A stretch of DNA of 46,054 bases from sequence record NC_019404.1. One strand, 5' to 3'. Both the position numbers and the translations under genes were made by a program. Of this stretch, positions 20,676-32,115 are shown piece by piece. The notes under the pieces were generated by a model, which worked only from the letters and a program-made list of their open reading frames with translations, made no database searches and had not been told where the DNA came from. Within the stretch, counting starts at the first letter, position 1. The number at the start of each line of letters is the position of its first letter. Origin of the DNA: Escherichia phage vB_EcoS_ACG-M12.

Positions 20676-20724
20676 TTAGTGTAGAATGGCACAAATGATC
20701 AAAACAAACATGAGGCTTTGTGAT

Positions 20725-23700
20725 ATGGCTGAAGAGATTAAGATTTATGGTGCTAAGGGTGGTAGCCAGAAGCAGCACCAACCAGTGGAACAAGAAGACA
20801 ACCTGATTTCATTAAACAAGGTTAAGGTATTACTTGCGGTTGCTGACGGCGAGGTGGATCCAAACTTCTCAATGAAGGATTTATACCTTGCTGACGTTCC
20901 GGTGCAAAACCAGGATGGCAGCTACAACTACGAGGGTGTTCGCGCTGAGTTCCGTGCTGGTACGCAGTATCAGGACTATATCGCTGGCCTTGATGGTGCT
21001 AACTCAGAGATTCAGGCTTCCAGGGAAATCACAAACGACACCCCGTACATCATTGCGGTTAACAATAACCAGCTATCGGCAATTAGAGTCAAACTTTTTT
21101 GGCCTCGGTTGGTTAAGCAAGAAAGTAACGGGGACCTGAACGGAACAACCTGCGAGTATGCGATTGACCTTTCCGTTAATGGTGGAGCATATCAGGAATA
21201 CACTCGCGGAGTTGCTAACGGGAAGACCACTACAGGTTACGACCGCAGCATTCGCGTGAACCTTCCTGCAGAGTTTGATAGCGCATTGGTTCGCATCCGT
21301 AAGATTACAGCAGATTCAACAAGTAGCACGCTGGTTAACGGAATGCAGATTACAACCTATCAGGAAGTAATCGACGCTAAATTCCGCTATCCGCTTACGG
21401 CACTTGTTTATGTTGAGTTCGGCTCTGACTTGTTCCCTAACGGCATCCCGACAATCTCAATCAAGAAGCGATGGAAGTTAATTCAGGTCCCAACGAACTA
21501 TGATCCTGAGACTAGAACCTACAGCGGCACGTGGAATGGACTGTTCAAGATGGCATGTTCAAACAACCCGGCGTGGGTTCTCTATGACTTAGTGACAAAC
21601 CGCCGATATGGTCTTGATCAGCGAGAGCTTGGTGTAGGGATTGATAAATGGGGACTGTATGAAGCTGCGCAATTCTGCGACCAGATGGTGCCGGATGGTA
21701 AGGGTGGAATGGAACCGCGATATCTATGCGACATGGTTGTACAGAACAAGGTTGAGGCCTACACACTAATTCGTGACATTTGCTCAATCTTTCGTGGACT
21801 GACTTTCTATGATGGCGAAAAGATTGGTATCGTGGTTGATAAGCCTCGCAATCCATCTTACATCTTCACTAATGATAACGTTGTAAACGGATTATTCAGC
21901 CGCACTTTTGCCAGCGATAAAAGCCTTTACACTACGGCAAACGTTCAGTTTGATGATGTGGAGAACAACTATCAGCAGGATGTTGAGCCAGTATTTGAGC
22001 TCGAGGCTACTCGCCGATTTGGTTTTAACCCGGTCGACCTAACGGCAATTGGATGTACGCGAAGAAGTGAAGCAAACAGACGCGGAAGATGGCTACTGAA
22101 AACCAACCTGAGAAGCGAAACTATCAGCTTCACTACCGGGTTGGAAGGCATGATTCCGATGATTGGTGAGGTTATTGCGGTTAATGACGCTGCATGGTCG
22201 AGCAACTACCAGTTAAACCTTTCCGGTCGTATTGAATCAGTTCAGGGATTGCAGGTTTTCACCCCGTTCAAAGTTGACGCGGCACCGGGTGACAGAATTC
22301 TTCTGAACAAGCCTGACGGAAGCCCGGAAGCAAGAACTATCGCCAGCGTTTCGGAAGATGGTAGAACTATCAACCTGAATACTGCTTTTAGTTTTGTAGC
22401 TCAGCCTGACACTGTATTCGCAATCGATAAGGATAATCTGGCGCTTCAGCAGTATGTTGTGACCGGGATTCAAAAAGCAGATTCTGATGGTTCGGATTCA
22501 TTCCAGTATACGATTACCGCGGTGGAGTATGACCCGAACAAGTATGACGAGATTGACTACGGCGTTAACATTGTTGACCGTCCAACTTCAATTGTGGAAC
22601 CTGACAGATTATCGCCACCAGAAAACCTGACCGTGTCAAGTTATAGTAAGGTTGTTCAGGGCTTGTCGGTTGAGACGATGGTTATCGGATGGGATAAGGC
22701 TCCATACGCTAAAACCTACAATGTTCAATGGAGGAAAGAAAATGGTAACTGGATTAACGTACCCAGAACAGCAAGTACAGATGTTGATATCGAAGGTATT
22801 TACGCAGGAATCTATGACGTTAGGGTTCGCAGCGTATCAGATACTGAAAACGTGTCTGCCTGGTCTGACATTGTAACTGTATCACTAACTGGCAAGATTG
22901 GACGTCCTTCGGCACCTACGGTTATCACGGCGTCAACTGATGAGGTATTTGGCATCCGTGTTAAATGGGGATTCCCTGATAGCTCTGGTGATACTGCTTA
23001 CACTGAGCTTCAGCAGGTTCCTGATAATGGCGATGGTACTTACAATCCTGATAACGCAAGCTTGCTGACGTTGCTGCCTTATCCAGCCTATGAATACTGG
23101 CATACGCCTATTCAGCCAGGTAAGGTTATCTGGTATCGCGCAAGATTGATTGACAGGATCGGAAACACCTCTGATTGGTCTGATTTCGCTAGAGGCATGA
23201 GTACTGACGACGCCAACATTATCAATGATTACATCAAGGTTGATATAGAGGGTTCGGAAGGATTCAAATACCTCGAGCAGAATGCGATTCAAAAGAATCA
23301 TGACATTCAGAATCAGGCAGAGTCAATTCTTGAGAATGCATTAGCTAATGATGCCGATGTTCGCCGGATGACCAAGGAGAACGGCAAACGTAAGGCTGAA
23401 TATGTTCAGACGGTGAATCTCATAGCCGATGAAACTCAGGCACGCGTAGAGGCTCTCACCGCACTTAAAGCGCAGATAGATGATGAAGTTGTAGCATCGA
23501 TTACGAAAGTTCAGACAGCGCTAGCTACCGAGACAGAAGCAAGGACCACCGCAGACACGGCTCTATCAGCAAGACTCGGTGATAACGAGGCGGCGATAAA
23601 CCAGAAATTAGACGCATTTTCCAATGCCACCTCAACTGGCGTGCAGTACGGAATTAGTCTTGGCCTGAAATACAATGGTCAGACTTATTCATCCGGCATG

Positions 23701-24111
23701 AGCATGGAGCTCGTTGGCACTGGTGATAACGTTCGTAGTCAATTCATTTTTGACGCAAACAGGTTTGCGATCAGTAACGGCATCGGTTCTGGCTCCGGTC
23801 AGTGGCAACTACCCTTCGTTGTCGAGAACGGAAACGTAATAATCCAGAGCGCAGTAATCGGAGATGGCTCAATCACTAACGCGAAGATTGGCAATAGGAT
23901 CCAATCTAATAACTACGTTGCTGGATCTCAAGGTTGGGCGATTGATAAGTCAGGAAGTGCAGAGCTAAGTAACGCCACTGTAAGGGGTAATCTTTACGCT
24001 AACAATGGCAACTTCGCATTTAACGGAACCAATAACACGGTTCAGATTAACAATAACGGAATCACTGTAAACTTACCTAACGGAGGAAGAGTGGTAGTTG
24101 GAGTGTGGTAA
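20725..24111 (+). CDS. central tail fibre/host specificity protein, lambda J-like (about 1128 aa)
   Basis: Size, position after the I-like gene, fibronectin-like middle and Gly/Asn-rich C-terminus; start at the ATG after GAGG (alternative ATG at 20686). Confidence 0.75.
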   Translation: MAEEIKIYGAKGGSQKQHQPVEQEDNLISLNKVKVLLAVADGEVDPNFSMKDLYLADVPVQNQDGSYNYEGVRAEFRAGTQYQDYIAGLDGANSEIQASREITNDTPYIIAVNNNQLSAIRVKLFWPRLVKQESNGDLNGTTCEYAIDLSVNGGAYQEYTRGVANGKTTTGYDRSIRVNLPAEFDSALVRIRKITADSTSSTLVNGMQITTYQEVIDAKFRYPLTALVYVEFGSDLFPNGIPTISIKKRWKLIQVPTNYDPETRTYSGTWNGLFKMACSNNPAWVLYDLVTNRRYGLDQRELGVGIDKWGLYEAAQFCDQMVPDGKGGMEPRYLCDMVVQNKVEAYTLIRDICSIFRGLTFYDGEKIGIVVDKPRNPSYIFTNDNVVNGLFSRTFASDKSLYTTANVQFDDVENNYQQDVEPVFELEATRRFGFNPVDLTAIGCTRRSEANRRGRWLLKTNLRSETISFTTGLEGMIPMIGEVIAVNDAAWSSNYQLNLSGRIESVQGLQVFTPFKVDAAPGDRILLNKPDGSPEARTIASVSEDGRTINLNTAFSFVAQPDTVFAIDKDNLALQQYVVTGIQKADSDGSDSFQYTITAVEYDPNKYDEIDYGVNIVDRPTSIVEPDRLSPPENLTVSSYSKVVQGLSVETMVIGWDKAPYAKTYNVQWRKENGNWINVPRTASTDVDIEGIYAGIYDVRVRSVSDTENVSAWSDIVTVSLTGKIGRPSAPTVITASTDEVFGIRVKWGFPDSSGDTAYTELQQVPDNGDGTYNPDNASLLTLLPYPAYEYWHTPIQPGKVIWYRARLIDRIGNTSDWSDFARGMSTDDANIINDYIKVDIEGSEGFKYLEQNAIQKNHDIQNQAESILENALANDADVRRMTKENGKRKAEYVQTVNLIADETQARVEALTALKAQIDDEVVASITKVQTALATETEARTTADTALSARLGDNEAAINQKLDAFSNATSTGVQYGISLGLKYNGQTYSSGMSMELVGTGDNVRSQFIFDANRFAISNGIGSGSGQWQLPFVVENGNVIIQSAVIGDGSITNAKIGNRIQSNNYVAGSQGWAIDKSGSAELSNATVRGNLYANNGNFAFNGTNNTVQINNNGITVNLPNGGRVVVGVW

Positions 24112-24114
24112 TAA

Positions 24115-24144
24115 ATAAAGCCCCTTAATTGGGGCTTTTCTTTT
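24115..24144. terminator. bidirectional terminator between convergent genes
   Basis: AGCCCC-ttaatt-GGGGCT flanked by an A-run and a T-run. Confidence 0.65.
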
Positions 24145-25105
24145 AGTAGAAGCTTGGAATAAATGGAAGTGCCATTGATATATTTGTGTCGAAAGGGAAC
24201 TGAGCGCCAGTCTGAGTTGAATAGTTACCTATTACAGAGCCAGGAACAGCCCTAACAGAGCCTCCAGACATGCAAACGCCCTTGTATCGCAAGTTGTTAT
24301 ATCCTCCAGTAACTCTAGTCGTAGCGCCACATCTAAGAATAGGGAAGAATCCACCATTTATTGACTGATATCCATTGCTTATTTGTATAAATCCACTAAG
24401 TACGAATGGTCGCCTAACGCTTGAAAAAACAATCTGACCAGAGCTATTTGACATTGTTAGTCCTGGTCCGGCTGGTGGGGGTTCATTTCTGAATATCACC
24501 AGCTGAACATAAGTACTTGCCGAAACATCATCTGTACCTCCGTAGGTTATATCCCTGCACCATATTGTTGATCCATCTGATTCAAGTGATACGTTTGGAT
24601 TATCCCACTTGCCGAATGGTATGCCGCTAACTGGTAGCGATGCCGCCCCGTTAACCTGTATGCCTCCAACCCATGCTGCTGACATTAGTCTCGAGTTGCT
24701 TGATATAGCAAGGAAATCAGTTGAGTTCTCAACGAGTATCCCTGGGCTTGATGAAGGTGATGCTGGTAGAATTTCAAAACAATTACCCGCAAAGTCAATT
24801 ATTCGACCATTGGCACCATTGAAGTTACTAAGTGTTATCCTGCCAACTCCGTCATTAACCTTTTGGAATCCGTTCATGTAATAAACTTCAGGTATAACAT
24901 CGTAAGCATCAACGTGGACTGCCTTCGTTGGTAGGCAGAAAGCCGTAGAGCCAGGAGACATTGTCAATCCAAAATCCCACGAACTTGCTGGGGTTGAAAG
25001 TCCATTGGTATTTATTGATCCAGTCACAGCAGGTGCCCTTAATCCTGCCGTTATTTCCATCGCTGGTCTTCCGTCATTGAGGTCAATCAATATACCCTGC
25101 GGCAT
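24143..25105 (-). CDS. beta-rich Gly/Ser/Asn-rich protein (320 aa), possibly receptor-binding or tail-associated
   Basis: Composition only; last gene of the minus operon; start at the ATG after AAGGAG. Confidence 0.35.
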   Translation of the reverse strand: MPQGILIDLNDGRPAMEITAGLRAPAVTGSINTNGLSTPASSWDFGLTMSPGSTAFCLPTKAVHVDAYDVIPEVYYMNGFQKVNDGVGRITLSNFNGANGRIIDFAGNCFEILPASPSSSPGILVENSTDFLAISSNSRLMSAAWVGGIQVNGAASLPVSGIPFGKWDNPNVSLESDGSTIWCRDITYGGTDDVSASTYVQLVIFRNEPPPAGPGLTMSNSSGQIVFSSVRRPFVLSGFIQISNGYQSINGGFFPILRCGATTRVTGGYNNLRYKGVCMSGGSVRAVPGSVIGNYSTQTGAQFPFDTNISMALPFIPSFY

Positions 25106-25356
25106 TATTTCCACTCCTTGCTGCCATGATCTGCAATAGAGCCACCGTAACCGCCGCCAGCCTTGCTTTCAATTCCGGCGTAGCGAACATCAACCTCACC
25201 AGCCGGAACAACTACGCCACCTTTCCATTTAGCTACGCACACACCATTTGCTTGTGTTGCACACCAACCATCCGGGCGAGGACCAGATGAGCAACCTACC
25301 ATCATGATTGCTGCTGCGGCGATGATTGAAAGTTTGATTAATTTAGTCATTTTCAT
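25105..25356 (-). CDS. lipoprotein (83 aa), Cor-like superinfection-exclusion candidate
   Basis: Signal peptide with lipobox MMVGC|SS; small size; located next to the tail fibre genes as cor is in T1/phi80-type phages (from memory). Confidence 0.45.
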
Positions 25357-25436
25357 GTTCCTTAGAATGTGTGTTTCGTTTTGATGGAGTAATCATATCT
25401 TAACTGTTAGGTTTGTCTTTAGCTATTCGTGCTATT
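25357..25436 (-). promoter_or_regulatory. conserved intergenic cassette, minus orientation
   Basis: Reverse complement reads AATAGCACGAATAGCTAAA ... leader CCATCAAAACGAAAC before the lipoprotein gene. Confidence 0.45.
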
Positions 25437-25679
25437 CAACCATCTGTTATATTTATCCCTCTCCTTGATTGCCTTTTCAAGTGACTTGAATCTTAAAAGT
25501 AGCGGCATACAGTCAACACCCATAATTAAGGATTCGTCGCAGCTATTTGCGCCAGTCAGCCAAAGAGAGAAGTATTGTTGATCGAGGCCGTAGTTCCTGT
25601 CTTTATTGACCCTAACGCTAACAACTTTAAATTTTAAACCAGCCAACTTAACCTTATCTATAAATTCTGACTTATTCAT
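25419..25679 (-). CDS. hypothetical protein (86 aa) ending ...NSTNS
   Basis: ATG 8 nt after AAGGAG; C-terminus encoded by the dyad box. Confidence 0.45.
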   Translation of the reverse strand: MNKSEFIDKVKLAGLKFKVVSVRVNKDRNYGLDQQYFSLWLTGANSCDESLIMGVDCMPLLLRFKSLEKAIKERDKYNRWLNSTNS

Positions 25680-25753
25680 CTTGTTGCTCCTTTTTAGTTT
25701 ACCTGGAAATGGTACATCACCCATGAGATTTGTCTTTAGCAATTAGTGCTATT
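25680..25753 (-). promoter_or_regulatory. conserved intergenic cassette, minus orientation
   Basis: Reverse complement of 25735-25753 reads AATAGCACTAATTGCTAAA; precedes gene 25419..25679. Confidence 0.45.
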
Positions 25754-26050
25754 GGTTACGCGTAACCGATGTAACTCGATGTATACCATATCCATCCGCG
25801 GGAAATCAGTTACGCCATATTGCGCACAGTTACGCTTTAGTTACACTAAAATATCTATATATATAAAGGGTTTAGATAATTATTATTATTATCTATATAT
25901 ATAGTGTAACTGCTGCAACTCATAATATTGGTATGTTGCGTTTGTTTTTCTATATGATGATTATCTTTGTTATCTGGCGTGGCTAAATGGATGTAGGGTG
26001 TGGTGCACCACATAAAAGATACCGTTACATTGGTTACATGTGAGTTACAT
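25754..26050. repeat. GTTAC/GTAAC iteron cluster with 14-bp perfect palindrome GGTTACGCGTAACC (25754-25767) and (TTA)n run (about 25878-25891)
   Basis: Direct repeats CAGTTACGC at 25808 and 25827; further GTTAC copies at 25839, 25906, 26023, 26033, 26045; divergent intergenic region. Confidence 0.6.
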
Positions 26051-26177
26051 TGAGGATTTATGCGGTCTGCGGTGGCTAAAAACGTAACAAAGGAGAGCCT
26101 ATACATGAAATTACGTCATTTGACGCGTAATCATAATTTATTAATCGGTGATATCTATTGGACTGCGCTGCCACCCT

Positions 26178-26225
26178 CTCATATGATCAACCCATCGAAA
26201 GCAAACAACCATAGAGAGACGCAAA
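26178..26225 (+). promoter_or_regulatory. -10-like box plus CCATCGAAAGC leader upstream of gene 26226
   Basis: CTCATATGATCAACCCATCGAAAGC resembles the cassette leader; no dyad box. Confidence 0.3.
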
Positions 26226-26420
26226 ATGGCTTACTTCATCATTAAAGAGAAAAACAACGCACTATTCGGCGACTGCTACTTCGGAGGTGAGGCAGGTTAC
26301 ACTACAGATAAGAATGAGGCAGACCGATTTGAAACGAAGGAAGATGCCAAATCTGTCCTGACCGGATACTTCACAGAAGAAGATTTTAAATTGGTTAAGA
26401 TTGTTAAGGTTAAGGAGTGA
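26226..26420 (+). CDS. hypothetical protein (64 aa)
   Basis: ATG after AGAGAGA; first gene of the recombination operon. Confidence 0.45.
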   Translation: MAYFIIKEKNNALFGDCYFGGEAGYTTDKNEADRFETKEDAKSVLTGYFTEEDFKLVKIVKVKE

Positions 26421-32096: not shown

Positions 32097-32115
32097 AATA
32101 GCACGAATTGCTAAA
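32097..32115. promoter_or_regulatory. isolated dyad box AATAGCACGAATTGCTAAA at the 5' end of the tail fibre gene, without a downstream -10 or leader
   Basis: Only copy not followed by a TATAGTTAC box and leader; lies between a TACAAT-like element and the SD of the minus-strand fibre gene. Confidence 0.4.

Follow-up and report, generated by a model that had tools for sequence, protein, structure and literature searches.

The closest described counterparts of the locus considered here (positions 24,115 to 25,753 of the 46,054-nucleotide (nt) sequence of Escherichia phage vB_EcoS_ACG-M12, record NC_019404.1, which as a whole is called the window) belong to phages that depend on LptD. Phage OzMSK is unable to infect lptD loop-deletion mutants, and its gene 038 has been assigned as the LptD receptor-binding protein (RBP) (Black et al., PMC13035648). 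The phages of the BASEL collection with LptD dependence include Bas01, Oekolampad (Bas18) and TheodorHerzl (Bas14) (PMC8594841), and the RBP of Oekolampad has been solved bound to an open state of LptDE (Dunbar et al., PMC12685063). The second component of such systems is a lipoprotein, Rtp45 in phage Rtp, which binds the periplasmic side of LptD and moves extracellular loop 4 by up to 20 Å, in a manner incompatible with RBP binding; its residues 30-35 form a beta-sheet with LptD 318-323, Cys30 and Cys38 form a disulfide, and a hairpin runs up the barrel lumen (PMC12685063). For the receptor FhuA, a structure with the lipoprotein Llp exists (8A60; PMC13164509).

The window is the complete genome of a Guelphvirus (Braunvirinae, Drexlerviridae). 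We consider it very highly probable that the locus is a module of the LptD type that serves host recognition and self-exclusion in small T1-like siphophages; its core would be formed by two genes:

24143..25105, minus strand: gene of a 320-amino-acid (aa) predicted terminal receptor-binding protein, LptD class, DUF6453 (Pfam PF20051, OzMSK_038 orthology, PDB match)
25105..25356, minus strand: gene of a predicted Rtp45-type outer-membrane lipoprotein (Pfam PF24052, Rtp45 identity, PDB 9rps_D, lipobox)

This reading draws on what the window itself shows, namely the families and orthologues to which the proteins belong, the order of the genes, their translational coupling and the key residues retained, and on what has been shown for close homologues, that is, LptD dependence (OzMSK, Bas01/02, Bas18; PMC13035648, PMC8594841) and the RBP-LptDE and Rtp45-LptDE structures (PMC12685063). 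An earlier note on the same DNA had described a three-gene operon with a Cor-like lipoprotein. The three minus-strand open reading frames (ORFs) on which it was based (24143-25105, 25105-25356 and 25419-25679) are all present, and they can be regarded as genuine genes and not chance ORFs because each product has a strong family match (Pfam and/or PHROG).

A Predicted Receptor-Binding Protein of the LptD Class

The earlier note saw no recognisable motif in the 320-aa protein, regarded it as a possible accessory component and asked for a homology search. That search contradicts the first statement, in that the protein is a member of the family DUF6453 (PF20051; E 1.2e-140, 468.3 bits against a 25-bit cut-off), its residues 4-297 aligning on profile positions 1-291 of 291; it also matches phrog_1265 (E 6.7e-130). 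The Gly/Ser/Asn richness that had been noticed is real (G 11.9%, S 11.6%, N 6.9%). The protein shares 96% aa identity with OzMSK_038, 41% with each of Rtp44 and Bas01_0028, ~42% with the homologue of Oekolampad and ~40% with that of TheodorHerzl, the last two at 100% coverage (tblastn). It lies above the level used for membership of this class, namely >30% identity, with nearly complete coverage, to RBPs from phages whose LptD dependence has been shown by experiment (bioRxiv 10.64898/2026.04.02.716166). Moreover, the PDB chains 9rpt_C/9rpw/9rqi, representing the Oekolampad RBP-LptDE complex, match its residues 2-315 (E 4.8e-65), and homologues occur in 412 phage records. As a DUF6453 member and homologue of a solved LptDE-bound RBP, the 320-aa protein does not appear as an accessory component; we identify it, by homology, as the LptD-class protein that serves as the main, dedicated terminal RBP.

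In the four Drexlerviridae RBPs aligned, the N-terminal segment M-x-QGI-x-IDLNDGR... does not vary, and the Oekolampad RBP largely keeps it. This finding agrees with a docking of the RBP on the tail by its base, as has been proposed (PMC13035648); a separate RBP is thought to attach at the distal end of the J-type protein (PMC8594841). The ORF has an ATG start with an AAGGAG ribosome-binding site 8 nt upstream, and this start overlaps the stop codon of the lipoprotein gene as TAATG; the two genes are translationally coupled.

Concerning the receptor, a dual requirement for NupG and LptD, as in Bas01, is disfavoured. The J gene is Rtp-like (89% nt identity, continuous) and shows no similarity to Bas01 at 23360-23534 (~aa 891-949), the part covered by a GpJ region reported to be specific to the NupG-dependent phages Bas01 and CPL00221. 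Judging from this comparison, ACG-M12 probably has no NupG co-requirement and needs LptD only.

The Rtp45-Type Lipoprotein

The product of the upstream gene of the pair matches the Pfam family PF24052 (Phage_lipoprotein) over the full profile, positions 1-80 (E 1e-38, 131.6 bits against a 27-bit cut-off), and the PDB chain 9rps_D, that is, Rtp45 with LptDE and LptM (E 9.3e-38). Its identity is 86% to Rtp45, 88% to OzMSK_039 and 83% to Bas01_0029. Both members of the Cys30/Cys38 pair of Rtp45 are kept, and so are five of the six residues of the LptD-pairing strand (residues 30-35), which reads CATQAN here and CATQAS in Rtp45. The lipobox that had been claimed for the 83-aa protein was confirmed by reading (a K-rich N-terminus, a hydrophobic segment, and MVGC followed by SS); the signal peptide, a typical type II one, runs as MKMTKLIK, a 12-residue segment, G-C and SS, with Ser at +2 and no inner-membrane retention residue at that position. 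The spacing of the ribosome-binding site and all the homologues favour the second ATG, at 25350, so that the true start is probably located there and the protein would have 81 aa rather than 83.

According to the mechanism that we propose, the tip of the RBP with its loops would enter the extracellular side of the LptDE lipopolysaccharide (LPS) translocon, which would act as the terminal receptor and lead to commitment to DNA ejection. The co-translated 81-83-aa lipoprotein would undergo export, receive its lipid at Cys22 and, having Ser at +2, reach the outer membrane, where it would bind the periplasmic side of LptD near strands 5-8, its beta-hairpin passing up the barrel lumen and pushing extracellular loop 4 outward; the RBPs would then be unable to bind, whether they belong to phages newly arriving or to progeny that encounter cell debris. 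The third gene, coding for an 86-aa protein, would be an independent inserted cassette with a copy of a conserved phage promoter/stem-loop motif on either side.

Some points weigh against this reading. The lipoprotein carries a 5-residue insertion near its C-terminus relative to Rtp45. ACG-M12 itself is known here from its sequence, and we infer from the homologues that it behaves as they do, with the RBP on the virion and exclusion in vivo. Seven virion proteins were found by mass spectrometry in the related phages AHP24, AHS24, AHP42 and AKS96, and the RBP is not one of them (PMC4070988), although tip proteins, present at low copy, easily escape such analyses. The Rtp45 complex was shown by cryogenic electron microscopy in a paper reporting no in vivo exclusion assay (PMC12685063), and exclusion by Rtp45 itself is something that we infer from the structure. 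Finally, the RBP bears the label "membrane protein" in GenBank and PHROG; we reject this label, because a homologue could be purified as a phage protein in its own right and its structure solved in complex with LptDE (PMC12685063). On reading the sequence, without a dedicated signal-peptide or transmembrane predictor, no signal peptide was seen in the 320-aa protein.

A further question concerns the advantage that the lipoprotein might confer. Its main benefit could be that of sparing progeny virions a futile ejection on LptD in the debris of lysed cells, as proposed for T5 Llp and Rtp45, and it may also perturb LPS export at a late stage of infection. We regard this as a real possibility, if not the probable one. 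The binding mechanism would be identical, exclusion factors have been stated to prevent adsorption both to infected cells and to post-lysis fragments (PMC12685063), and the TAATG coupling to a late structural protein fits late expression. However, this idea differs in the selective benefit only and not in the molecular mechanism, and no toxicity or effect on LPS export is reported in the literature examined. The Rtp genome paper is said to have proposed a progeny-protection role.

Returning to self-exclusion at LptD, the Cor/Llp type to which the lipoprotein had been assigned deserves consideration. Of that assignment the receptor-blocking function stands, given the 86% identity to LptDE-bound Rtp45 (PMC12685063), whereas the family and the receptor class do not. 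In favour of an exclusion protein of the Cor/Llp family, with FhuA or another TonB-dependent receptor as its target and the 320-aa protein as an accessory of no known family, one could point to the lipobox and the location beside the J gene, which resemble T1 cor, and to a homologue labelled "Cor superinfection exclusion protein" in the GenBank record of vB_Ec-G8. The comparisons with Cor speak against this. T1 Cor aligns with the lipoprotein (BLASTP) only at residues 8-27, that is, over 20 residues of signal peptide and lipobox, with no homology in the mature domain; T1 Cor scores 17.7 bits against the PF24052 profile, below the 27-bit threshold; and the PHROG Cor family (phrog_1119) reaches E 0.011, over residues 8-36 only. 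Membership of the Cor family is rejected on these three results. That of the Llp family is rejected on the PDB search of the lipoprotein, which at E<=0.01 returned 9rps_D as the sole match and no Llp chain, the presence of Llp in the library being presumed and not directly confirmed. Since, in addition, the closest characterised homologue binds LptD and the 320-aa protein belongs to DUF6453 as a homologue of a solved RBP, we judge a Cor/Llp-family protein at this locus to be extremely improbable and, on these alignments, already refuted at the family level. The lipoprotein is predicted to work like Cor and Llp by analogy only, outside their families, and with LptD, not FhuA, as its target.

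Gene Organization and the Promoter-like Motif

The remaining features of the locus are the following:

20686..24111, plus strand: J-like central tail fibre / tail tip gene (ORF; "tail protein" in Escherichia virus ECH1; 89% nt identity to rtp43 through the stop codon)
24117..24138, both strands: bidirectional intrinsic terminator hairpin AAAGCCCC-loop-GGGGCTTT (terminator scan and sequence reading)
25392..25435, minus strand: promoter-like element of the lipoprotein-RBP pair (promoter scan, motif conservation)
25419..25679, minus strand: small accessory gene of the 86-aa protein, phrog_4423 (PHROG match)
25709..25752, minus strand: motif copy 2, promoter-like, upstream of the 86-aa gene (direct repeat D1, motif search)

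The lipoprotein/RBP pair lies directly downstream of the J gene and convergent with it, the hairpin at 24117-24138 being common to the convergent J and RBP genes; Rtp, Bas01 and OzMSK are arranged alike. Over positions 24000-26300, the window is 99.5% identical (nt) to ECH1 and 96.7% to vB_EcoS_SCS31. The annotated gene coordinates of ECH1, itself a Guelphvirus, agree with those of the window, and its labels for the 320-aa, lipoprotein and 86-aa genes are "membrane protein", "hypothetical protein" and "hypothetical protein".

Upstream of the pair, we found a 22-nt motif, ATAGCAC(G/T)AAT(T/A)GCTAAAGACA, also ATAGCAC(G/T)AAT(T/A)GCTAAAG, containing the inverted repeat TAGCA-N5-TGCTA. One copy of this ATAGCACGAAT motif stands directly upstream of the lipoprotein gene and another upstream of the 86-aa gene. 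Copy 1 (ATAGCACGAATAGCTAAAGACA, 25435-25414) includes an AAGACA -35-like hexamer, followed by a 16-nt spacer and TATGAT at 25397-25392, and the element overlaps the last codons of the 86-aa gene; copy 2 (25709..25752, minus strand) consists of ATAGCACTAATTGCTAAAGACA, 16 nt and then TACCAT. The two copies form a 28-nt direct repeat, D1 (89% identical, 317 nt apart), bracketing the 86-aa gene within 25409-25753. In each of the four phages compared (window, OzMSK, Rtp, Bas01) a conserved copy precedes the lipoprotein gene, whatever lies further upstream. In the window it occurs at 8 sites as the 22-mer (<=3 mismatches) and at 11 as the 11-nt core ATAGCAC(G/T)AAT, against a chance expectation of ~0 to 1, the core sites from the motif search being:

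2116, 2747, 5966, 18846, 27584, 32098, 36163, 40779, plus strand: 11-nt core
25435, 25752, 44831, minus strand: 11-nt core

Those sites that were checked against the ORF table lie at gene boundaries. After the motif, 10 of the 11 have, on the same strand, a TATAGT-like -10 element, a conserved CCATCGAAACGA-like leader, a ribosome-binding site and an ATG, the copy at 32098, followed by a terminator-like hairpin, being the exception. The motif is probably the regulated promoter/operator of the family. It was also found in Rtp, OzMSK, Bas01 and a Klebsiella Drexlerviridae phage. The Rtp genome paper reportedly describes 10 conserved inverted repeats tied to a regulator, Rtp52.

The 86-aa ORF has an ATG start preceded by the ribosome-binding site AAAAGGAG, and its product belongs to phrog_4423 (E 7.7e-41), a family with no assigned function. 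Scans with Pfam, NCBIfam and PADLOC gave no match for it; those with NCBIfam and PADLOC gave nothing useful for any of the three proteins. An AlphaFold (AF2) model from a 6-sequence alignment has an alpha-beta3-alpha fold (pLDDT 82). Foldseek returned no match with E<0.1 for it in the PDB; matches to dsRBD and ribosomal protein S5-like folds are weak (template modelling score ~0.3) and are not evidence. The position of this gene is variable, being occupied by a methyltransferase in OzMSK and Bas01 and by no gene in Rtp, and the homologues are found away from tail genes, among clustered small ORFs, mostly unannotated, of T-even phages (between frd.2 and frd.1) and of Phapecoctavirus and Webervirus phages.

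The organization described does not establish the three-gene operon of the earlier note, in that the 86-aa gene and the lipoprotein/RBP pair each have their own motif copy and the former is absent or replaced in close relatives; for the same reasons the 86-aa gene does not appear to be part of an RBP/exclusion unit. Read-through transcription is nonetheless likely, because the genes lie on the same strand with 62 nt between the 86-aa and lipoprotein genes and no terminator in that interval (terminator scan). These features would also be expected if all three genes formed one functional operon, with the 86-aa protein as an aid to RBP assembly or exclusion. Against this, the RBP/lipoprotein pairs are intact in Rtp, OzMSK and Bas01, where the 86-aa gene is missing or its place is taken by the methyltransferase, the homologues lie among small ORFs outside a tail context, and the lipoprotein gene retains a conserved promoter-like motif of its own; we hold a single functional operon to be highly unlikely. 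The own conserved motif and the break of homology at copy 1 (see below) indicate, therefore, that the lipoprotein-RBP pair is a self-contained unit, the 86-aa gene being a separate exchangeable cassette outside the RBP/exclusion module, from which transcription may read through into the pair.

Mosaicism of the Locus

Homology to OzMSK is unbroken from the J gene to motif copy 1 (25436), with 90.6% nt identity; it is then interrupted and resumes at copy 2 (25731). As for Rtp, the J gene is 89% identical (nt) up to the terminator, no nt similarity is detectable across the body of the RBP gene (24143-25071), and similarity is back at 77% from the first ~11 RBP codons through the lipoprotein gene to its promoter. 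Across phage records, the mature lipoprotein is usually better conserved than the partner RBP, with identities of 86% vs 41% in Rtp, 71% vs 41% in the DSM 12242 phage group and 64% vs 30% in Klebsiella Webervirus; Oekolampad is the exception (37% for the lipoprotein, 42% for the RBP). Such a difference would be expected of a lipoprotein whose binding surface, on the periplasmic side, is conserved, and of an RBP that follows outer loops prone to vary.

The distribution of these junctions suggests that cassettes are exchanged through recombination at the motif, in a way that recalls the promoter-early stem-loops of T4. One might go further and suppose a locus made of separately exchangeable pieces, with the stem-loop/promoter motif ATAGCACGAATTGCTAAAG and the first ~11 RBP codons as junctions, in which RBP bodies (alleles 41% identical) and upstream cassettes (the 86-aa gene, a methyltransferase or nothing) are swapped around one conserved Rtp45-type lipoprotein, as a Drexlerviridae counterpart of the T4 "promoter-early stem-loop" shuffling. 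We advance this wider idea tentatively and consider it rather unlikely; if it were true, one lipoprotein would cross-exclude all LptD-binding RBP classes, possibly including those of Kuravirus podophages.

Distribution, Flanking Region and Significance

Homologues of both the RBP and the lipoprotein, unlinked, were observed in the Kuravirus (Gordonclarkvirinae) podophage Ptacy1479. Its DUF6453 protein (91 bits, L012:3944-4975) is encoded directly after the distal long-tail-fibre gene; its PF24052 lipoprotein (124 bits, lipobox LTGC, L011:2447-2725) is encoded among small, mostly hypothetical genes and is annotated as "transcriptional regulator". Further tblastn matches occur in phages of ~67-82 kb, among them SU7, Bas88, Bas90, Bas92, MN03 and 172-1. 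The similarity of these proteins suggests that LptD may be a receptor for Kuravirus podophages too; the papers examined on Kuravirus, SU10 and the extended BASEL collection contain no link of Kuravirus to LptD.

On the other side of the locus, the minus-strand genes and the plus-strand recombination genes diverge, and the intergenic region that separates them (25753-26225) is rich in repeats: a perfect palindrome GGTTACGCGTAACC (25754-25767), many GTAAC/GTTAC and two identical TATCTATATATATA (25852-25865 and 25890-25903). This region may be regulatory or origin-like. An 83-aa ORF in it (25855-26106, minus strand) is probably non-coding because it has no family match and is unannotated in ECH1.

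The module is already known (Maffei 2021, Black 2025, Dunbar 2025), and the window adds nothing new to it, since ECH1 is 99.5% identical (nt) over the locus, the RBP is 96% identical to one with LptD evidence and the lipoprotein 86% identical to one with a solved complex. The gain consists in replacing the labels "membrane protein" and "hypothetical protein" with LptD RBP and exclusion lipoprotein, respectively, and in a confident prediction of the receptor. LptD is essential and conserved, which makes the phages using it attractive for therapy and also stubborn laboratory contaminants, and the exclusion lipoprotein would represent a way to shut the outer face of LptD from the periplasm.

Comparison with Known Systems

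The system most similar to that of ACG-M12 is the 038/039 pair of OzMSK (vB_ecoS_OzMSK / MSK, an LptD-dependent laboratory contaminant phage), with an RBP identity of 96%, a lipoprotein identity of 88% and, in both phages, a pair that follows the J gene at the same place and in the same orientation; they differ in the upstream cassette, for which OzMSK has a DNA methyltransferase and ACG-M12 the 86-aa gene. Rtp44/Rtp45 of phage Rtp (Rtpvirus; Rtp45-LptDE(M), PDB 9RPS) share with it the lipoprotein (86%), the Cys pair, the LptD-pairing strand, the gene order and a J gene 89% identical (nt), whereas the RBP body is a different allele (41% aa), there is no third gene and the lipoprotein lacks the 5-residue insertion of ACG-M12. 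In Oekolampad (Bas18, Dhillonvirus; PDB 9RQI/9RPT/9RPW) the same protein families occur in a locus downstream of a J-like gene, with an RBP identity of 42%, but the lipoprotein is only ~37% identical and the genus is another one. More distant are T5, with pb5 (Oad) and Llp, and T1, with its FhuA locus and Cor, in which an RBP is likewise paired with a periplasm-facing lipoprotein that inactivates the same outer-membrane receptor from inside; the proteins, however, are unrelated in sequence, and the receptor is FhuA, a TonB-dependent transporter, not LptD. The way in which the receptor is closed also differs, in that Llp acts by long-range allostery, whereas Rtp45 physically displaces extracellular loop 4 (PMC12685063).

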